A stretch of 64,000 nucleotides of DNA. Origin: Prevotella sp. (lineage in GTDB: Bacteria; Bacteroidota; Bacteroidia; Bacteroidales; Bacteroidaceae). Below are positions 3,564 through 60,659 of the stretch, in pieces. Every line of letters begins with the position of its first letter. Within the stretch, counting starts at the first letter, position 1. The notes beneath the pieces are model-generated. The model did no database searches and was not told the origin of the DNA. It worked only from the letters and a program-made list of their open reading frames with translations. Location: NCBI GenBank assembly GCA_016291495.1, contig JAEEXI010000002.1:113880-177879 (forward strand), given 5' to 3'. Made by a program: the position numbers and the translations under genes.

Positions 3564-4492
3564 TAAGATATACCTCTGCGCATACTGACGAGTGGAATCA
3601 GTTTGTGGCGAAGTCGAAGAACGGCACATTCCTCTTCGATCGTGGCTACATGGACTATCACGCTGACCGATTCCAAGACTATTCGTTGATGTTCTATTGC
3701 AAAGGACACTTGCTGGCCGTTCTGCCTGCGCATGTCGTTGGTGATGCGCTCTGTACGCATCGTGGACTGACCTATGGCGGATTGCTGATGAGCGAACAAC
3801 TGACGATAGCAGAGACAATGGTGCTGTTTCGTGAATTGAATGATATGCTACGTGGCGAAGGATTGAAGCATGTCAGTTACAAAGCCATCCCCTGGATATA
3901 TCACCGCTTGTCGGCAGAGGAGGACTTATATGCACTCTACCATGAGTGCAAGGCCCGTATCGTGGCTCGTGACTATTCCACAAACATATTTCTTGGAGCC
4001 AATCTGCGTTGGGAGCGCGTTCGTCGTCGTGGCGTCACCCGTGCCGAACGGGCAGGCATCCATGTGGAAATCAGCAACGACTATGCTGACTTCTGGCAGG
4101 TGTTGGCCGATAATCTTGGTACGAAATACGGTATCAAGCCTGTACATAGCCTTCAGGAGATAGAACTACTGCATAGTCGGTTTCCAAAGAACATCGTGCT
4201 CTATCAGGCAGTTCTCGATAGAAAGGTGTTAGGTGGTGTCGTCCTTTACGTGACTCCTCAGGTGGTACATGCCCAGTATAGTTCTGCCACACCGGAGGGC
4301 AAGAGTCTTGGTGCTATCGATGCTATCTACAACCGTATCATGCACCATGACTACAAAGACTATCCTTATTTCGACTTTGGTCGTTCTACGGAGAATCCTG
4401 ACGGCAGCGGTCTTAATGAGACACTCGTCTTCCAAAAGGAAGGTTTCGGAGCCCGCGGCTTGTGTTACGATATCTATGAGTACGACCTATAA
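3551..4492 (+). CDS. GNAT/FemAB-like acyltransferase
   Basis: NGTFLFDRGYMDYH, HRGLTYGG, FDFGRSTE, KEGFGARG; family often found near sugar-nucleotide genes. Confidence 0.75.
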   Translation: MFEIVRYTSAHTDEWNQFVAKSKNGTFLFDRGYMDYHADRFQDYSLMFYCKGHLLAVLPAHVVGDALCTHRGLTYGGLLMSEQLTIAETMVLFRELNDMLRGEGLKHVSYKAIPWIYHRLSAEEDLYALYHECKARIVARDYSTNIFLGANLRWERVRRRGVTRAERAGIHVEISNDYADFWQVLADNLGTKYGIKPVHSLQEIELLHSRFPKNIVLYQAVLDRKVLGGVVLYVTPQVVHAQYSSATPEGKSLGAIDAIYNRIMHHDYKDYPYFDFGRSTENPDGSGLNETLVFQKEGFGARGLCYDIYEYDL

Positions 4493-4499
4493 TCCTTCT

Positions 4500-5108
4500 T
4501 TATTCGTCTAACAGGAGTACGGTAGCGCTTCTTGCGGCTTGGGCACCCATGACGAGGACTTGTGCGATATCAGCCGTCTTCGAGGGACCGCTGATAAAGG
4601 TGCCATAACCGTAGTCGGACAGTCCGGCAACGGAATCGCCGGCACTGAGGCGCTTGTAGGCCTCGTGCATGTTGTTTACAATCTCCGACTTCTTTAGCAG
4701 GATGACCAGATTCTCGGAGATGAAGCAGACGGCTTTCTCCTTCATCTGCTGGGGAATCCACACGCAGGCATTCTCAGCCACACCGAAACTGCCGCGAACG
4801 ACGCCCACATCGGTGCCGTTCAGGTCGCGGGCCCGTCCCACCTCGTCGGGATTGCGCGTGGCGATGGTAATCTCGGGCAGGTTGGAGGCTATCTCCTTGG
4901 CATCGGGATAGAGCTCGCGGATGAGGTCGTTCACGTCGCGCCCCTTGTCCACCTCGATGGCATTGCCGCCCACGCTCTTGGTCATGTTCATAAACTGCAA
5001 CAGCGGGTCGGGGTAGGTGATGGCCTGGATGTCGCTCAGGTCGGGCATGTCGAACTGTTCGCGGATATTAGCCCTGTATTTCATCAATATATCTTCTTTA
5101 CTTGACAT
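4500..5108 (-). CDS. lutC: Lactate utilization protein C (LUD domain)
   Basis: GVAENACVW, FISGPSKTADI, GAQAARS; downstream of lutAB. Confidence 0.88.
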   Translation of the reverse strand: MSSKEDILMKYRANIREQFDMPDLSDIQAITYPDPLLQFMNMTKSVGGNAIEVDKGRDVNDLIRELYPDAKEIASNLPEITIATRNPDEVGRARDLNGTDVGVVRGSFGVAENACVWIPQQMKEKAVCFISENLVILLKKSEIVNNMHEAYKRLSAGDSVAGLSDYGYGTFISGPSKTADIAQVLVMGAQAARSATVLLLDE

Positions 5109-5137
5109 AATAAATTTTTTAGCGGTTTATTACTTTG

Positions 5138-5202
5138 GCGGCAGCAAATTCTTCACTCTTCACTCTTCACTTTTCACTCTTCACTTTTCACTATTCCCTT
5201 AA
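5138..5202. repeat. Solo arm: GCGGCAGCAAATT plus 7 heptamers (YTTCACT/ATTCCCT), overlapping the lutB 3' end
   Basis: Read directly: cttcact x3, tttcact, cttcact, tttcact, attccct, taa. Confidence 0.9.
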
Positions 5203-6553
5203 TAATCTCGTGGAACGGTTTCTTGGGGAACTCCATCATCTTATGACCTTCGGCCCACGGGTTCAGGCCGCAGTTCATCAGCGGTGAGGGAATGAGGTTG
5301 GCCCAGTGGGCAAGTCCGGTGGCAAAATTATAGAGCCCGGGCGAGCCGTAGAGCATGGACATGCCTTGGCACATGAGCTTCTTCTGCGGATTGGCGGTGC
5401 CGAAGTCGCTGAGCTGTTGGCGCCACAGGTAAATCTGGTCGCCCAGATTGACCTTGGCAGGACAAACGGTCTGACAAGAGTTGCAGAGCGTGCAGGCCGA
5501 CACGTTGCCCGAGTGCTTCTGCGGGTCGCGCAGCATGCCCAGGTTGATGCCGATGGGTCCGGGGATGAAGTAGCTGTAGCTGTAGCCTCCCGAGCGACGA
5601 TAGACGGGACAGGTGTTCATGCAAGAGCCGCAGCGGATGCACTTCAGCGATTCCCAGTGCTCAGGATTGCCTATCCACTCAGAGCGCCCGTTGTCCACCA
5701 GGATGATGTGCATGTGGTGAGCCGTGGGGCGGGCCTTGCGGAAATGCGAGGTGTAGGTGGTGGTGGGCTGACCGGTTCCTGCACGACAGAGCATGCGCTG
5801 GAAGACGGCAAGGCACTCGTAGTTGGGGATGACCTTCTCCAGTCCGATGGCGGCAATGTGCAGCCGCGGGCATGAGGTCGACATGTCGGCATTGCCCTCG
5901 TTGGTGCATACCACGATGTCGCCCGTCTCGGCAATACCGAAGTTGGCGCCCGTCATGCCGGCGTCGGCGGTCAGGAACTCGTTGCGCAAACTCAATCGGG
6001 CACGATAGGTCAGGAACGTGGGGTCGTGGTTGCCCTTCTCGTTCGAAATGCCTTTCTCCTCGAAAAGCTCGCCCACATCGTCGTGGTTCAGGTGGATGGC
6101 TGGCATCACGATATGGCTGGGTGCCTGACCCTTCAACTGGATAATGCGCTCGCCCAAGTCGGTTTCCACCACCTCGATGCCTCTTTCCTCAAGATAGGGA
6201 TTCATGCCACACTCCTCCGTCAGCATCGACTTCGACTTCACCATCTTCTTGACGTTATGGTTCTTCAGGATGCCATACACGATTTCGTTGAACTCGGCAG
6301 CATCCTTCGCCCAGTGAACCTCCACGCCGTTCTTCTCGGCATTGGTGGCAAACTGGTCCAGATATTCGTCCAGATGGGTAATGGTGTGGCGCTTGATCTG
6401 CGAGGCTTTCTCGCGCAGTTGTTCCCACTCGTCCAAGCCATAGGCCATATTGTCGCGCTTGGTGCGAACGGCCCAGAAGGTGGCGTCGTGCCAGTGGGCG
6501 TATTGCTGGTTCTTTAAGAACTCCTTGGCAGCTTTGCTATGCTGTGTACTCAT
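5174..6553 (-). CDS. lutB: Lactate utilization protein B (Fe-S subunit)
   Basis: KSKSMLTEE, ETDLGERIIQL, CIRCGSCMNTCP, CTLCNSCQTVCP. Confidence 0.93.
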   Translation of the reverse strand: MSTQHSKAAKEFLKNQQYAHWHDATFWAVRTKRDNMAYGLDEWEQLREKASQIKRHTITHLDEYLDQFATNAEKNGVEVHWAKDAAEFNEIVYGILKNHNVKKMVKSKSMLTEECGMNPYLEERGIEVVETDLGERIIQLKGQAPSHIVMPAIHLNHDDVGELFEEKGISNEKGNHDPTFLTYRARLSLRNEFLTADAGMTGANFGIAETGDIVVCTNEGNADMSTSCPRLHIAAIGLEKVIPNYECLAVFQRMLCRAGTGQPTTTYTSHFRKARPTAHHMHIILVDNGRSEWIGNPEHWESLKCIRCGSCMNTCPVYRRSGGYSYSYFIPGPIGINLGMLRDPQKHSGNVSACTLCNSCQTVCPAKVNLGDQIYLWRQQLSDFGTANPQKKLMCQGMSMLYGSPGLYNFATGLAHWANLIPSPLMNCGLNPWAEGHKMMEFPKKPFHEIIKGIVKSEE

Positions 6554-6555
6554 AA

Positions 6556-6712
6556 TTTAAGGTAAAAGTGAATAGTGAAAAGTGAAAAATTTACTTCCGC
6601 ACTTCTTGCTATTCATCTTTTTCTTTTGATAATCGTTAATACTATTGTTAATTCTCACTCAGGGACAGCGGTAGCAAATTATTCACTATTCCCTTTTCAC
6701 TATTCCCTTTTA
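6556..6712. repeat. Empty inverted-arm element: left arm 6556-6600, 67-bp spacer, right arm 6668-6712
   Basis: Left arm is 43/45 identical to 7444-7488; right arm is GCGGTAGCAAATT plus 4 heptamers and ends at the lutA stop codon. Confidence 0.88.
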
Positions 6713-7441
6713 CAGCCCCGCTGCTAAAATCTCTACTACGTGCTTGAACTCAATCTTCTTGCCTTGCTTGCGGGCTACACCAGCCATATGCATCAGACAA
6801 GAGCAGTCTGGACCAGTGATATACTCAGCACCCGTCTGGATATGACGCTCCACCTTGTCGAGTCCCATCTGGGCGGACACGGCGGTCTCCTCGACGCTGA
6901 ACATGCCGCCGAAGCCGCAGCACTCGTCAGGACGCTCAGGTTCCACGACATCGATGCCGTCAACCAATTGCAACAGGTCCTTGATCTTATTGAACTTCGC
7001 TACATGCTCCTCAGAAGGGGAGGAGAGTCCCAGCTCGCGAACACCATGACAGGAATTGTGCAGGCTGACCTTATGGGCAAAGGTGCCCAGACGGCGGTCG
7101 ACCTTCACCACGTCGTGCAGGAACTCGACCACGTCCATGCATCTCTTGGCGCTCTCGCACTCATGGTTCAGCAGTCGCGGATAGTTCAGACGGATAAACG
7201 CCGTACAACTGACACTGGGTGACACCACATAGTCGAAGTCCTTGAAGAGGTCGTCAAACTTCTCTGCCAAAGGAATGGCTTGTTTCTCGAATCCTGCATT
7301 GGCCATCGGCTGACCGCAGCAGGTCTGTTTCTGTGGATACGTGACATCCAGCCCCAGATGCTTCAGCAACTTATAGGTTGCCAAACCCACCTCAGGATAG
7401 ACAGCATCCACATAACAGGGAATGAATAATCCAATTTTCAT
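6710..7441 (-). CDS. lutA: Lactate utilization protein A (CCG-domain Fe-S protein)
   Basis: LFIPCYVD, QTCCGQP, HNSCHGVR, ECCGFGGMF, DCSCLMH. Confidence 0.93.
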   Translation of the reverse strand: MKIGLFIPCYVDAVYPEVGLATYKLLKHLGLDVTYPQKQTCCGQPMANAGFEKQAIPLAEKFDDLFKDFDYVVSPSVSCTAFIRLNYPRLLNHECESAKRCMDVVEFLHDVVKVDRRLGTFAHKVSLHNSCHGVRELGLSSPSEEHVAKFNKIKDLLQLVDGIDVVEPERPDECCGFGGMFSVEETAVSAQMGLDKVERHIQTGAEYITGPDCSCLMHMAGVARKQGKKIEFKHVVEILAAGL

Positions 7442-7497
7442 AGTTTAAGGTAAAAGTGAATAGTGAAAAGTGAATAATTTGCTTCCGCCATTCCTTT

Positions 7498-7875
7498 TCA
7501 CTTCATTTCATTATTTTGTTTCGTTGTTTTAATTGATGAAATCAGAAGAGCAAGTAACTCTTGGCAGTCTATATTCATGCTCTCGAATTCCTTTTCATTC
7601 AAATAATCAGTATCTTTTAGGATATTGAGCCAATAGAGGGTTTCGTTGCACTCTTTTAGTGCAATAGACAGTTTGTTGATGAAATCAGCTGGGCTTTGCG
7701 CATAGGTTGCCTCACTTACCAAAGCACCAATAGCTGTACCAGAGCGGAATATTTGATTAATCATTCCATACTCTTTAGGGCTACATTTGATAAATTTCAC
7801 CATCTTTACTATTCTCACTCCGAAGCAATAGCTTTTCTTCGTGAGTGGCGTATTATTATGTTGAATATAAGACAT
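7498..7875 (-). CDS. Four helix bundle protein (23S rRNA IVS-protein/Avd-like family)
   Basis: QIFRSGTAIGALVSEA..AQS..DFINKLSIALKECNETLYWL family signature; more AT-rich than its neighbours. Confidence 0.92.
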   Translation of the reverse strand: MSYIQHNNTPLTKKSYCFGVRIVKMVKFIKCSPKEYGMINQIFRSGTAIGALVSEATYAQSPADFINKLSIALKECNETLYWLNILKDTDYLNEKEFESMNIDCQELLALLISSIKTTKQNNEMK

Positions 7876-7967
7876 GCGGCAGCAAATCGTTTCTTTATTA
7901 TGCTTTGCCTCAGCGGCGGCAGCAAATCGTTTCTTTATTATGCTTGCCTCAGTGGCGGCAGCAAATT
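7876..7967. repeat. Tandem 40/39-bp duplication plus a third partial copy, each starting GCGGCAGCAAAT
   Basis: Copies at 7876-7915, 7916-7954 and 7955-7967. Confidence 0.92.
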
Positions 7968-7994
7968 ATTCACTTTTCACTATTCACTTTTCCC

Positions 7995-9599
7995 TTAAAT
8001 CACGTGCAACCCCAGGAACACCATCAGTCCATTCATCAATATCCAGAAGATAGCGAATGGCATCGTCCTGCGCATAATGTCGCCGTCCTGCCCCTCCATG
8101 TCGCAGGCGGCAGTAGCAATGGCGATCGACTGCGGTGAGAGCAGTTTACCGCCCTCAGAACCCGCACAGTTGGCAGCCGCGAGCCAGTTGGTCTCGCTAC
8201 CCGTAACGCCAAAGAAGGTGCCTTGGTTCACCAATCCGAGGTCGCTGGCAGCGGTAGCCTGCAACTTACCAAACAGGATGTTGGCATTGGTGGCTGATCC
8301 CGTTACGAAGGTTCCGATAGAACCAATCAGTGGAGCGAAGAAGGGGAAGGCTGCACCCGTCAGCAGGACGAGTCCCTTGGCAATGTCGTTGGTCATACCC
8401 GTGTTGTTCATCAGCATCGCCATCGCTACGAGACAGCAGATGGTCACGACCGTCTTCTGCAGGTTGAGCGTGGTCTTAGCCAACAACTTCAACAACTTGC
8501 CGATACTCATACCCTGAATCAGTCCACCGATGACGGCACCCAGGAAAATCATCAGACCTGCATTCGACAACCAACCGAACTTAAAGGTATTGCCAATGAC
8601 GGGCAACTCGAACTTGGTCACCAAAGTGTTGTTCAACAGCTCATTGACAGAAGGAACAATCTTGCTGCTGATCAGGATGAAGAAGATAATCAGTCCATAG
8701 ACACTCCATGCCTTCAGCGTCTTGACGACACCGAATTTGTGGTGTTCCACATGCACCGTATCCTTCTCAGCCTCATGGCGCAGGAACAGCTTGTTATACA
8801 GCAGCATGGCTGCGATGGCGGCTACAGAGCCCAGGATGGCGGGTGTCTCAGGACCGATGAAGTGGGCACAGCAGAACTGCACAGTGATAGAACAGGTTCC
8901 CACGAAGAGGGCAATAGTGATGTTCTTCACAATCTTCGTCTTGTCCGTCATCATCAGGATAAGGAACGGGGTGATGTAGAACATCAGCGAGAGCTGTAAT
9001 ATAATAAAGGTGGCCACCTCGCAGAGCTCCTCAGGCGTTGCCGTTCCACTTGCCGCCACTTGGTTGGCCAATGTCGTGGCAGGCAGACCGACGGCTCCGA
9101 AACCTACGGCAACCGTGTTTGCCACCAGACAGATAACGGCTGAGAACATGGGCTTGAAACCCAGTCCTATCAAGATGGCCGCAGGAATGGCTACAGCGGT
9201 GCCGAAACCAGCCATACCCTCCAGCACGCCACCAAGGCCCCACGTCAACAGCAGCACCAACAGTCCCTTGTCGCTGGTCATCTGGATAAACTGCGTCTTG
9301 ATAGTCTCAATCTCCTTCGTCTCACACAGGATATTGTAACTGAAGATGGCACAGATGATGATCAGGATAATGGGGAAACATGCCTTCAGCAGTCCTTCCA
9401 CCACTGACCATAAAGTGATGCCGAAGATACTGGCATCTGCAAACTTCTCGGGAATGATACCCATTGCAGGCACGGCAAACAATGCCAGGAGGATGGTCAC
9501 GATAAGGGTGACGATGGCACTCCTGTAGCCGGAAACCTTGAATCCCATCATCAGTACAATGAGTAACAGAATAGGGATTACGGATATTAATGCTGTCAT
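7995..9599 (-). CDS. lctP: L-lactate permease
   Basis: Many transmembrane segments; LEGMAGFGTAVAI, IGTFVTGSATNANILFG, LLSPQSIAIA. Confidence 0.93.
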   Translation of the reverse strand: MTALISVIPILLLIVLMMGFKVSGYRSAIVTLIVTILLALFAVPAMGIIPEKFADASIFGITLWSVVEGLLKACFPIILIIICAIFSYNILCETKEIETIKTQFIQMTSDKGLLVLLLTWGLGGVLEGMAGFGTAVAIPAAILIGLGFKPMFSAVICLVANTVAVGFGAVGLPATTLANQVAASGTATPEELCEVATFIILQLSLMFYITPFLILMMTDKTKIVKNITIALFVGTCSITVQFCCAHFIGPETPAILGSVAAIAAMLLYNKLFLRHEAEKDTVHVEHHKFGVVKTLKAWSVYGLIIFFILISSKIVPSVNELLNNTLVTKFELPVIGNTFKFGWLSNAGLMIFLGAVIGGLIQGMSIGKLLKLLAKTTLNLQKTVVTICCLVAMAMLMNNTGMTNDIAKGLVLLTGAAFPFFAPLIGSIGTFVTGSATNANILFGKLQATAASDLGLVNQGTFFGVTGSETNWLAAANCAGSEGGKLLSPQSIAIATAACDMEGQDGDIMRRTMPFAIFWILMNGLMVFLGLHVI

Positions 9600-9641
9600 A
9601 GGCTTTGTAGTTATTTGTGATTATTCTATAAGTTCTGGGGA

Positions 9642-9649
9642 CAAATATA
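9642..9649 (-). promoter_or_regulatory. Bacteroidota -7 promoter box for the lctP-lut operon
   Basis: TATATTTG on the minus strand, ~43 nt upstream of the lctP ATG. Confidence 0.65.
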
Positions 9650-9735
9650 CAAATTTTCCGTCATACCGCCATCAATTTTATGTGAAAGAATAATAAAAGA
9701 GCTACGAATTATTGGTAGCCTTCCCTTCGATGACA

Positions 9736-14465: not shown

Positions 14466-14507
14466 AGCATTGAGCATTATGAATTATGCATTGTGCATTA
14501 TGCATTG
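14466..14507. repeat. Heptamer array WGCATTR x6
   Basis: agcattg agcatta tgaatta tgcattg tgcatta tgcattg. Confidence 0.88.
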
Positions 14508-58292: not shown

Positions 58293-60659
58293 CTACTTCT
58301 TTTGCAAGTATTCATCCATATGGGCTGCCGCACGACGACCGTCGCCCATAGCAAGAATCACGGTAGCGCCACCACGGACGATGTCACCACCGGCGAAGAT
58401 TTCAGAACGAGCCGACTGCATGCCCTCGTTGACGACGATGGTGTTCTTGCGACCCAGTTCCAATCCCTTGATAGATTTAGGAACCAATGGATTGGGGGAT
58501 ACACCAACGGCAACGATAACCTGGTCAACTTCCAAGGTAACGGTCTTGCCCTCTACGGGAACAGGACTGCGACGGCCACTGGCATCTGGCTCACCGAGTT
58601 CCATGACCTGCAGAACGGCAGCCTTGACGGCACCGTTCTCGTCAGCGATGTACTCGATAGGATTGTGGAGCGTCAGGAAGTTGATACCTTCTTCCTTGGC
58701 ATGCTTCACTTCCTCCAGACGGGCAGGCATCTCTTGTTCAGAACGACGGTAGACGAGGGTAACGTTACCACCCAGACGCTTAGCCGTACGGCAAGAGTCC
58801 ATAGCGGTATTACCACCACCCACAACAAGTACGTTCTTACCCAGATTGATAGGTGTATCCGTCGTCGGGTTGGCAGCATCCATCAGGTTCACACGGGTGA
58901 GGTACTCATTTGACGACATGATATTGATGGCATTCTCGCCAGGAATATTCATGAAGTTAGGCAGACCGGCACCAGAACCTACGAAGACACCTTTGAAACC
59001 CTGCTGTTCCAGCGTCTCGACGCTGATGGTCTTACCAACGATGACGTCGGTCTGGAAGTGGACGCCCATCTTGGCAAGGTTCTCGATTTCCACGTCCACG
59101 ATCTTGTTGGGCAGACGGAACTCAGGGATACCGTATTTCAGCACACCGCCAATCTCGTGCAATGCCTCGAAGACATACACGTCATAACCTTTCTTCACCA
59201 TATCGCCAGCGAAGCTCAGTCCGGCAGGACCAGAGCCTACAACAGCAATCTTGATGCCGTTGGCAGGTGCAATCTCCGGCAGACTGATGTTGCCGCTCTC
59301 GCGCTCGTAGTCGGCAGCGAAGCGCTCCAGATAGCCGATGGCTACAGCGGGCTCGTTCATCTTCAGATGGATACACTTGCTCTCACACTGTTTCTCCTGG
59401 GGACAAACACGTCCACAGACTGCGGGTAGGGCAGAAGTGTCCTTCAGAACCTTAGCGGCAGCCAAGAAATCACCACGCTCGATATTCTTGACAAACGATG
59501 GGATGTTGATGTTGACAGGACAACCCTCGACACAGGTAGGCTTTGCGCAGTCCAGACAACGCTTGGCTTCCGTCATTGCCATCTCCTTGGTGAGTCCGAT
59601 GTTCACCTCCTCAATACGGGTGGTAGCGCGATAGACAGGGTCCAACTCCGGCATGATGACACGCTCGATGGCCGTGCGCTCCTTGGGTTTCATGCTCTTG
59701 CGGAGCTCTTCACGCCATGCAGCGTTGCGATCGGTCAGTACTTCAATGGGGTCGTTAGTGGAGTCGCTGTCCATCGTCACATCAGTGGCGGCAGCATTTT
59801 TTTCACTCTTCACTTTTCCCTCTTCACTTCCCATCAGATGCTCCTCATAATGCTCCAGTTCTTCTTGCTCGGCACGCTTGAAGGTGCCCATGCGCTTGAA
59901 CATCTCGTCCCAATCGACGAGAGCACCGTCAAATTCAGGACCGTCGATGCAGACGAACTTCGTCTTGCCACCAATCGTCAGACGACAGGCACCACACATA
60001 CCTGTACCATCAACCATAATGGTGTTGAGGCTGACCTCACAAGGGATATTGTATTTTTGGGCAGTGAGGTTGGAGAACTTCATCATGATGGGAGGGCCGA
60101 TGGCAAATACCTTGTCGACATGCGGTTCCTGTTGGATGAACTTCTCAATACCAACAGTTACCACACCTTTCTCACCATAACTGCCGTCATCGGTCATGAT
60201 GATGACTTCGTCTGATGACTCACGTACCTTATCTTCAAGGATAATCAAATCCTTTGAACGGCCTGCCATTACAGAGAGAACACGGTTGCCGGCGGCCTTC
60301 AGAGCCTGGATGATAGGCAACATGGGTGCCACACCCAGTCCACCACCGGCACATACGACCGTACCGTAGTTCTCAATGTGGGTGGGATTACCCAATGGAC
60401 CAACTACGTCAGCCACATACTCGCCTTCTTTCAAGGCACAAAGTTTCTTGGAAGAAAGTCCTACCATCTGTACGACCAGAGTAATGGTACCTTTGTCAAT
60501 ATCGGCACCGGCAATGGTCAGAGGCATACGTTCACCTTTCTGGTCAACACGTACAATCACGAAATTACCAGCCTTACGGCTTTTCGCAATCAATGGAGCC
60601 TCAATCTCAAAAAGGAAAACCTTCTCTGAGAACTGCTCTTTTCTTACAATTTTATTCAT
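58293..60659 (-). CDS. Fused NfnA-NfnB-type transhydrogenase (DHOD-B NAD-binding plus GltD-like)
   Basis: GERMPLTI, GTGMCGACR, CIDGPEFD; CLDCAKPTCVEGCP, VCPQEKQCE, GSGPAGL, GGGNTAMD. Confidence 0.88.
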   Translation of the reverse strand: MNKIVRKEQFSEKVFLFEIEAPLIAKSRKAGNFVIVRVDQKGERMPLTIAGADIDKGTITLVVQMVGLSSKKLCALKEGEYVADVVGPLGNPTHIENYGTVVCAGGGLGVAPMLPIIQALKAAGNRVLSVMAGRSKDLIILEDKVRESSDEVIIMTDDGSYGEKGVVTVGIEKFIQQEPHVDKVFAIGPPIMMKFSNLTAQKYNIPCEVSLNTIMVDGTGMCGACRLTIGGKTKFVCIDGPEFDGALVDWDEMFKRMGTFKRAEQEELEHYEEHLMGSEEGKVKSEKNAAATDVTMDSDSTNDPIEVLTDRNAAWREELRKSMKPKERTAIERVIMPELDPVYRATTRIEEVNIGLTKEMAMTEAKRCLDCAKPTCVEGCPVNINIPSFVKNIERGDFLAAAKVLKDTSALPAVCGRVCPQEKQCESKCIHLKMNEPAVAIGYLERFAADYERESGNISLPEIAPANGIKIAVVGSGPAGLSFAGDMVKKGYDVYVFEALHEIGGVLKYGIPEFRLPNKIVDVEIENLAKMGVHFQTDVIVGKTISVETLEQQGFKGVFVGSGAGLPNFMNIPGENAINIMSSNEYLTRVNLMDAANPTTDTPINLGKNVLVVGGGNTAMDSCRTAKRLGGNVTLVYRRSEQEMPARLEEVKHAKEEGINFLTLHNPIEYIADENGAVKAAVLQVMELGEPDASGRRSPVPVEGKTVTLEVDQVIVAVGVSPNPLVPKSIKGLELGRKNTIVVNEGMQSARSEIFAGGDIVRGGATVILAMGDGRRAAAHMDEYLQKK
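59784..59832. repeat. Solo arm of the GCGGCAGCA/TTCACT family inside a CDS
   Basis: AGTGGCGGCAGCATTTTTTTCACTCTTCACTTTTCCCTCTTCACTTCCC versus 7951-7994. Confidence 0.8.

Follow-up and report, generated by a model that had tools for sequence, protein, structure and literature searches.

In a 64,000-nt stretch of a Prevotella sp. genome (contig JAEEXI010000002.1, positions 113,880 to 177,879 of the forward strand; hereafter, the window), a gene for a small four-helix-bundle (4HB) protein lies between two long inverted arms at the junction of lctP, which encodes L-lactate permease, and lutA. Our comparison with sister species shows that the gene and its arms form one heritable unit, or cassette, found at different operon junctions in different species; that gene-less derivatives of this unit, which share its arms and have a conserved loop, exist alongside partial remnants; and that it is missing from the orthologous junctions of the closest relative. 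The varied junctions, the gene-less derivatives, the remnants, and the empty junctions of that relative together indicate that the unit has been gained and lost repeatedly, and in its behavior it is like a mobile operon insert of a kind not described so far. With a probability that we put at roughly 0.6, the armed 4HB cassette is an operon insert resembling the intervening sequences (IVSs) of 23S rRNA, repeatedly gained and lost, whose arms form an RNA stem that is probably cut by RNase III.

The operon reads lctP, cassette, lutA, lutB, and lutC on the minus strand (Table 1), and the whole cassette comprises ~556 bp (7444-7999), with one PF05635 gene between two 47-nt inverted arms. An earlier reading of this DNA from its letters alone (the sequence-only reading) had described a near-perfect 45-bp terminal inverted repeat with two differences; the repeat is real and slightly longer, with 45 matches over 47 nt (96% complementary) and a spacing of 462 nt in our repeat search. 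On the sense strand, each arm consists of a run of AGTGAAN heptamers followed by the nonrepetitive core AATTTGCTNCCGCC. In the window, 18 occurrences of the heptamer motif were counted where 0.19 were expected, so that the repeat far exceeds chance. Both arms adjoin host codons, in that (i) the lctP stop codon TAA (7995-7997) falls within the upstream (F) arm, and (ii) the downstream (R) arm ends 2 nt ahead of the lutA ATG (7441-7439). The minimum-energy fold predicted for the 567-nt transcript of this region (7438-8004) pairs the two arms around the entire open reading frame (ORF), at -177 kcal/mol compared with -120 ± 6.5 kcal/mol for shuffled sequences (z = -8.9).

The cargo gene has the same orientation as lctP and lutA, and its G+C content is 0.357 against 0.53-0.57 in the lut genes and lctP, in agreement with the AT-rich, operon-co-oriented cargo described earlier. 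The absence of rRNA and transposase genes nearby was also borne out, since an Rfam scan of 4400-9700 found no family and hence no rRNA, and the ORFs neighboring the cassette are lctP and lutABC only; an Rfam scan of the arms themselves gave chance-level matches only. No promoter or terminator belonging to the cassette was seen, and a Bacteroidetes promoter box (TAnnTTTG) within the arm core was rejected as a candidate because the letters of the core do not match it. The TTAA that the sequence-only reading had seen at both ends, and had taken for either a target duplication or a part of the repeat, is present and sits within the inverted repeat (TTTAAGG...CCTTAAA). For this reason, and because the empty sites of the closest relative (G015, below) have no TTAA, its interpretation as a target duplication is unsupported. 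The flanks of the lut junctions are too diverged from those of G015 to give exact breakpoints.

The 125-aa cargo protein belongs to the PF05635/TIGR02436 family of 23S rRNA intervening-sequence proteins, which was first discovered within such rRNA inserts. It matches PF05635 at 1.2e-24 (87 bits; cut-off, 33.8), TIGR02436 (four helix bundle protein) at 1.8e-28 (98.9 bits; cut-off, 24), and, over residues 11-121, the Bacteroides protein of PDB entry 2RLD, which is the closest relative with a solved structure and has five chains in its entry, at E = 8.9e-32. Moreover, the four residues that are invariant across a 36-sequence family alignment, namely Gln41, Arg44, Glu55, and Glu78, are all kept. 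The earlier claim that a 4HB gene of the IVS/Avd type is carried as cargo between terminal inverted repeats therefore holds in both its architecture and its family assignment. Among the five close cassettes described below, the nonsynonymous divergence (dN) of the protein is 0.08-0.13, synonymous divergence (dS) is saturated, and dN/dS is ≤0.06; the gene is therefore functional and under strong purifying selection.

We compared this genome (G000; 2.88 Mb in 28 contigs) with those of relatives (G015, G228, G229, G242, G248, and others). Among relatives with the operon, G015 is the closest, with amino acid (aa) identities of 96%, 95%, and 86% in LctP, LutB, and LutA, respectively. There is no lut element in G015: its lctP-lutA junction is a plain 54-nt spacer, and both its lutA-lutB and its lutB-lutC junctions have overlapping stop and start codons. 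The lutA-lutB overlap recurs in 8 of 10 other relatives from the same genus, and in the remaining two, lutB starts 24-40 nt past the end of lutA. Among the relatives checked for an lctP-lutA junction, G015 alone has one: in G228 lutA is preceded by intergenic sequence and not by lctP, and in G248 lctP is on the other strand.

The nearest homologs of the cargo protein (78-85% aa identity) are encoded in G228, G248, G229, and G242, and all four genes have the same heptamers and core. Their cassettes lie at lutB-lutC in both G228 and G248, between a pyridoxal phosphate enzyme gene and a regulator gene in G229, and between proC and a regulator gene in G242, so that the same cassette type is found at four junctions across five species. 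The two lutB-lutC cassettes are 78% identical to each other, which is no closer than copies at different junctions. Further, G000 has remnants at junctions where its sisters are loaded, namely a solo F arm at lutB-lutC and the string TAAGGGAATAGTGAAAAGGGAATAATT-ATG at proC-regulator; from its sequence, the latter resembles the footprint of a deletion that ran between two AATT strings, one in each arm of a G242-type cassette. Vertical inheritance at this locus, which the sequence-only reading had named as the finding that would tell against it, is thus not what we found, because G015 has an lctP-lutA junction without the gene and the closest cassettes lie at other junctions.

The lutA-lutB junction of G000 holds a gene-less hairpin of 159 bp, whose F arm contains the lutA stop codon and whose R arm adjoins the lutB ATG; its predicted fold has -40 kcal/mol (z = -4). 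Gene-less elements form a discrete family in their own right: G228 has this element at the same junction with a near-identical loop, and G229 has a homologous gene-less copy at a different junction, beside its loaded cassette (89% mean column identity). Many minimal gene-less hairpins, with a 12-nt loop, occur in G248. A 19-codon mini-ORF (MNSKKCGSKFFTFHYSLLP; 6554-6625, minus strand) starts in the loop of the G000 copy, crosses the R arm, and ends in a TAA 3 nt ahead of the lutB ATG; the ORF is kept in G228, and its stop codon is not kept in G229. This mini-ORF may be left over from the 4HB gene's 3' end, or it could serve to couple translation across the stem.

The arm, with its core, occurs in 47 copies across G000, and in 71 copies in G228, 69 in G248, 51 in G281, 34 in G242, 23 in G015, and 14 in G229, while 50 of 61 sampled genomes of the genus have none. 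Identity between the 43-nt arms of the five close cassettes is 94%, despite the saturated synonymous sites of the gene that they enclose. Judging from this conservation, the arm sequence itself is maintained, beyond its pairing, and the cause could be selection or conversion among the many copies per genome. Both arm mismatches are kept in all five species (AAGGGAA versus AAGGTAA, and GCT[A/G]CCGC versus GCTTCCGC); they are not decay, and they allow the two ends to be told apart. One compensatory change is seen in G228, where both arms have AACAG. More distant homologs (54-70% aa identity) have related AGTGAAG/ACGAAG heptamers and mostly other cores, with one homolog at 54% identity retaining the core AATTTGCTGCCGC. 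Over 45 loci of the genus, arm similarity was at background below 50% protein identity and reached medians of 72-85 above 75%. G000 contains five PF05635 genes, and each has, on either side, heptamer arrays with a unit of its own (AGTTGAG, TAATGCT, GAGAATT/GATAATT, CTGTCAA, and AGTGAAN). Inversion is clear in three of these flank pairs and only weak in the AGTTGAG pair, whose own-flank score is at background; the two CTGTCAA arrays are in direct orientation.

Arms of this kind are not confined to one subfamily. We scored the inverted repeat formed by the two flanks of each locus and compared it with that of flanks swapped between loci. In the genus (30 loci plus the 4 other G000 copies, 34 in all), the median own-flank score was 34, against 15 for swapped flanks; in the phylum (30 loci), it was 27.5 against 16 for swapped pairs (p = 1e-14); and in a set from many phyla, found by using a 12-sequence alignment, 58 of 78 loci exceeded the 95th percentile of swapped pairs. 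The last set includes Acidobacteriota, Chlorobi, Proteobacteria, Planctomycetota, Omnitrophota, Chloroflexi, a lineage of the candidate phyla radiation, and Cloacimonadota. The sequence-only reading had also looked to homologs that lack flanking arms as evidence against it; in the genus, phylum, and cross-phylum sets, arms are present. In the genus set, the 4HB ORF nearly always lies between a same-strand stop codon and a same-strand start codon, bracketed by tandem repeats with a period of about 7-9 nt; the upstream copy recurs downstream as its reverse complement, and the repeat unit varies from locus to locus. Co-oriented ORFs end and start within 200 nt on both sides of 56 of 64 4HB genes, and upstream units mostly appear, by eye, to contain a stop codon. 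Some junctions are conserved over long distances with species-specific arms, as at frdA-frdB in the genus and, in Flavobacteriia, at junctions that include those of the fad operon. The arms of PF05635 genes across bacteria differ by locus yet remain complementary.

How such a unit might persist in an operon is suggested by the IVSs of rRNA. ORF-bearing IVSs of 23S rRNA are known in Coxiella burnetii (helix 45) and Leptospira, where RNase III excises them; the enzyme needs roughly two helical turns of stem, and the 47-bp arm stem is well above this. In the mechanism that we favor, the cassette would be co-transcribed with the lactate operon, which we infer because no promoter or terminator of its own was seen and its arms adjoin host codons. 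Pairing of the arms in the transcript would give a stem of ~47 bp with two conserved purine-purine mismatches; by cutting this stem, host RNase III (rnc; C16:107787-108170) would detach the 4HB message and split lctP from lutABC, as with ORF-bearing 23S rRNA IVSs. Such cleavage would let the insert be tolerated in an operon at little cost. The F arm, through its stop-rich heptamers, ends the upstream gene in any frame, so that the unit could land at a junction without damage. The cleavage step is probable by analogy with the C. burnetii IVS (444 nt, with a 28-bp stem), which carries an S23p ORF of the same family and which RNase III cleaves in vitro (PMC4990558).

The likeness to 23S rRNA IVSs extends to (i) an S23p/PF05635 gene as the only ORF, in 428-444 nt in Coxiella and 556 nt in the cassette; (ii) terminal inverted repeats that enclose this ORF, with a stem of 28 bp in Coxiella (PMC4990558) and 47 bp here; and (iii) a position within a transcribed unit without an evident promoter of its own, and a sporadic distribution among relatives. 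Unlike these IVSs, the cassette lies at the junction of protein-coding cistrons and not in a 23S rRNA helix (25 or 45), its arms are tandem heptamers with a conserved core that also occur in ~45 gene-less copies, its upstream arm supplies the stop codon of a host gene, and RNase III cleavage, seen in Coxiella, is here an expectation. Since the defining location in 23S rRNA is absent, the cassette would be IVS-like in its working and yet not an IVS.

Several observations weigh against the reading of the cassette as a mobile insert with an RNA stem. In a wobble test, the arms of the genus set had 48 A.C and 21 G.U mismatches, which does not favor a stem in the sense RNA, and the phylum arms (10 A.C and 17 G.U) were heterogeneous relative to them. 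The conserved purine-purine mismatches (G.A or A.A) are equally compatible with a role at the DNA level. Neither a transposase nor a clear target duplication nor an excised junction was seen for the cassette. G000 encodes a single 264-aa Y1 (HUH) transposase (C22:820-1614; motifs NHFHLL and YIHQNPLKAGIV) that resembles the tyrosine transposases associated with repetitive extragenic palindromic (REP) sequences (RAYTs); it has no flanking arms, and a minority of the genomes of the genus encode homologs with 42-65% identity. Of the first 61 genomes, 5 of the 11 with arms and 2 of the 50 without them had this RAYT-like gene (p = 0.0014), but it is missing from seven of eight further arm-bearing genomes, including G281, which is 99% complete and has 51 arm copies, and we therefore rejected it as a required mobilizer. 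Many 4HB genes elsewhere are long-lived at one conserved junction (frdA-frdB and the fad junctions). Lastly, heptamer arrays are common at G000 junctions without any 4HB gene, so that the arms could be host features older than the gene.

This last point leads to an explanation in which the hairpin came first: the heptamer arrays would be REP-like intercistronic stem-loops that stabilize mRNA or act as attenuators, and the 4HB gene would merely sit in a permissive loop without being part of a mobile unit. G000 indeed contains ~485 tandem arrays of period 7 in 135 unit classes (window examples lie at 5150-5199, 6560-6588, 6680-6708, and 14466-14507), with GAGAGGT, AAGAGGT, AGTGAAG, AGTGAAA, GATAATT, and GAGAATT as the top units, and 29 adjacent inverted pairs of arrays, many with loops of 37-170 nt and no gene. 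Further, a hairpin stands at acpP-fabF in four of four species compared, in G000 with arms of the family described here, in G005 with GATAATT heptamers, in G013, and in G015 with a plain GC stem; these sequences are unrelated, which points to a conserved structural role. Heptamer arrays have also been described elsewhere, with the unit TAACTGA in Beggiatoaceae, Cyanobacteria, and Bacteroidetes (MacGregor 2015; PMC4679880) and GGGNATC in Xanthomonas and Nostoc (Rehm et al. 2015; PMC4692102). In the portions of these two papers drawn on here, 7-nt tandem units likewise lie near the stop and start codons of co-oriented genes, with a preference for gaps between aligned ORFs in Rehm et al., and in the forward orientation they close all three frames. 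In the same portions, no gene family is tied to the repeats, and the arrays of MacGregor are direct repeats with a single inverted case, in contrast to the matched inverted arrays around a specific gene seen here. What makes the hairpin-first explanation improbable, in our judgment, is how closely arm and gene travel together: the same arm sequence accompanies the same protein subfamily at four different junctions, arm similarity tracks protein identity, and the arms are 94% conserved against saturated synonymous sites. Moreover, all five 4HB genes of G000 are flanked by arrays, and most of those in other phyla are armed, whereas only ~10% of G000 junctions hold any array, and the comparison of G015 with G000 suggests that gene and arms arrived together at an armless junction. 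The tie between arm and gene would also suit a cognate protein-repeat system, in which the 4HB pentamer binds its own heptamer arms, as RNA or DNA, and regulates itself or the flanking genes, with mobility being secondary. The arm sequence is conserved, beyond pairing, far above the neutral expectation; each protein subfamily has its own unit, with arm similarity falling as protein identity falls; the protein is under strong purifying selection; and Avd, an accessory factor of diversity-generating retroelements, binds nucleic acid. Avd is a structural relative of the cargo protein (PMC10053308). We still find such a system doubtful, as at least 40 arm copies in G000 have no adjacent 4HB gene, three genomes (G015, G056, and G053) have the arm family with no close homolog of the subfamily among the matches listed, and the frdA-frdB arms differ widely between species.

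Avd itself invites the thought that the cassette is the remnant of a diversity-generating retroelement, given that it is a small four-helix-bundle family related to PF05635 (PMC10053308). This is very hard to sustain: the gene stands in a metabolic operon with lctP and lutA as neighbors, no reverse transcriptase ORF and no pair of template and variable repeats is found nearby, the repeats found there are limited to the heptamer arms and the 40-nt core units, and the arms are inverted heptamer arrays and not template or variable repeats. A DNA-level transposable element has more to recommend it, although we hold it to be unlikely too. Here, the arms would be terminal inverted repeats or single-stranded DNA hairpins for a recombinase acting in trans, the 160-bp empty copies would be MITEs (miniature inverted-repeat transposable elements), and the RNA stem would be incidental. 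The cassette family has terminal inverted repeats, copies dispersed by the dozen in some genomes and lacking from most of the genus, gene-less derivatives with common arms, filled and empty sites, and two ends that differ in a conserved manner, and in the first set of genomes the RAYT-like gene co-occurs with it. MITEs, REPs, and bacterial interspersed mosaic elements (BIMEs) are short palindromic repeats in dispersed copies, some of which RAYT Y1 transposases mobilize. Like them, the arm copies are lineage-restricted, hairpin-forming, and intercistronic (the gene-less copies at lutA-lutB, at acpP-fabF, and in G248 are such short dispersed hairpins), and the short, nonautonomous versions have the same ends as a longer version that carries a gene. 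Unlike in those elements, the gene carried is not a recognizable transposase, no transposase is encoded by the element or consistently co-occurs with it (no recombinase lies in or beside the cassette, and the RAYT-like gene is absent from G281 and six other arm-bearing genomes), the lut junctions show no visible target-site duplication, and the arms are tandem heptamers and not a simple palindrome. In addition, strict co-orientation and exact abutment to stop and start codons fit a constraint at the level of the transcript, and at several sites the arm substitutes for a stretch of similar length and is not added to it.

A broader proposal is one that we put forward tentatively, as possible and not as probable. 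Together with their inverted heptamer arms, PF05635 genes would make up a single class of autonomous hairpin cassettes found throughout bacteria, with the 4HB pentamer as the element's own sequence-specific factor that recognizes the arms of its subfamily; the gene-less hairpins of 160 and 110 bp would be nonautonomous derivatives, and the IVSs of 23S rRNA would be copies that landed in rRNA. The present lineage would then be a live example, in which a cassette hops between the junctions of one operon and leaves footprints.

To our knowledge, the IVSs of rRNA with their S23p/4HB ORF have stood unexplained since the early 1990s, and so have the 7-nt repeats at gene junctions; the lctP-lut locus links these two puzzles. 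In the literature searched, no account emerged of PF05635 genes that carry inverted heptamer arms outside rRNA IVSs. What is new here is the same cassette at differing junctions of sister species, with footprints, a conserved gene-less derivative, and arms conserved against saturated synonymous sites, and together the shifted junctions, the remnants, the gene-less derivative, and the 94% identity of the arms are unusually direct comparative evidence that gene and arms act as a unit. A single operon contains loaded, empty, and broken copies, in a genome that has an rnc gene. If the 4HB cassettes are RNase III-processed "introns of operons", or if the 4HB protein recognizes its own arms, a role would follow for thousands of genes whose only annotation today is "four helix bundle protein".

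Table 1. Cassette, host genes, and further arm copies in G000. Positions are those of the window, except where a contig (C) is given.
Feature	Position	Strand	Description
lctP (L-lactate permease), upstream host gene	7995-9599	-	Stop codon supplied by F arm
Upstream (F) arm	7953-7999	-	Sense strand TTTAAGGGAAAAGTGAATAGTGAAAAGTGAATAATTTGCTGCCGCCA: three AGTGAAN heptamers and core AATTTGCTGCCGCC
Two tandem 40/39-nt units	7876-7952	-	ACTGAGGCAAGCATAATAAAGAAACGATTTGCTGCCGCC; a copy of the arm core closes each unit
4HB cargo gene	7498-7875	-	125 aa, PF05635/TIGR02436; intact; subfamily motif FRSGTAIGALVSEA
Downstream (R) arm	7444-7490	-	Sense strand TGGCGGAAGCAAATTATTCACTTTTCACTATTCACTTTTACCTTAAA
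lutA, downstream host gene	6710-7441	-	ATG at 7441-7439
Gene-less 159-bp hairpin at lutA-lutB	6554-6712	-	F arm 6668-6712, 66-nt loop 6602-6667, R arm 6554-6601
lutB	5174-6553	-	ATG adjoins R arm of gene-less hairpin
Solo F arm at lutB-lutC	5138-5202	-	Seven heptamers and core GGCGGCAGCAAAT (plus-strand letters)
lutC	4500-5108	-	Follows lutB in the operon
In-frame arm copy, translated GSEEGKVKSEKNAAAT	59787-59832	-	In gene 58293-60659, a 788-aa fused oxidoreductase
proC-regulator remnant	C1:59576-59602		TAAGGGAATAGTGAAAAGGGAATAATT-ATG; three arm-family heptamers
Gene-less arm-family hairpin at acpP-fabF	C16:109551-109629		RNase III gene just downstream of fabF
Gene-less hairpin with the same arms	C3:153858-153931		Inside an ORF by a crude ORF call

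Arm copies within genes form a further group. The solo arm at lutB-lutC encodes the last nine codons of lutB and its stop codon, and the in-frame copy GSEEGKVKSEKNAAAT lies in the linker between an NfnA-like Fe-S/FAD half and a GltD-like half of the oxidoreductase. At the latter position, G015, G013, and G005 have an unrelated linker that is only 3-6 nt shorter in the alignment, so that the arm patch takes the place of other sequence and is no addition. Of the 47 arm copies, about 15 lie in long ORFs, in either orientation (such as C20:82384, argS-like; C11:38107, rluA-like; and C11:140888; others include C5:54472, C4:24613, C22:101748, and C21:87199), and four sense copies have the variant heptamer AGTTAAG, which eliminates an in-frame TGA. 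Rickettsia palindromic elements similarly have in-frame copies inside genes, and it is in being read through in this way that some arm copies resemble them. At the argS and rluA spots, G015 has a different repeat-like stretch, and these protein loops thus turn over between repeat families. Solo in-ORF arms as pure insertions were rejected, since in alignments with orthologs they mostly replace a variable stretch of similar length.

The two tandem units between the F arm and the 4HB gene, the last arm core of which directly adjoins the 4HB ATG, are related to a second dispersed leader module of the form (heptamers)-AATTCTTGCTAA-GGCAAGCGTACTAAAGAAACGATTAG. This module stands 8-25 nt ahead of start codons at seven G000 sites besides the window (C1:18615, C5:424, C15:5570, C18:96281, C22:231646, C24:4841, and C27:8944) and includes a small CTTGC/GCAAG hairpin. 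Its variant, in two copies before the 4HB ATG, is absent from the four sister cassettes, and the module may be a portable 5' leader. G000 also has hundreds of arrays with periods of 8, 9, and 11 nt. Six solo arms (C1:6183, C2:37135, C3:2186, C5:5369, C8:11528, and C25:9505) directly adjoin TGCAAAG(G/A)TAC(A/G)AA, whose reverse complement is a Bacteroidetes-type -7 promoter box (TAnnTTTG); this would place them immediately upstream of an opposite-strand promoter.

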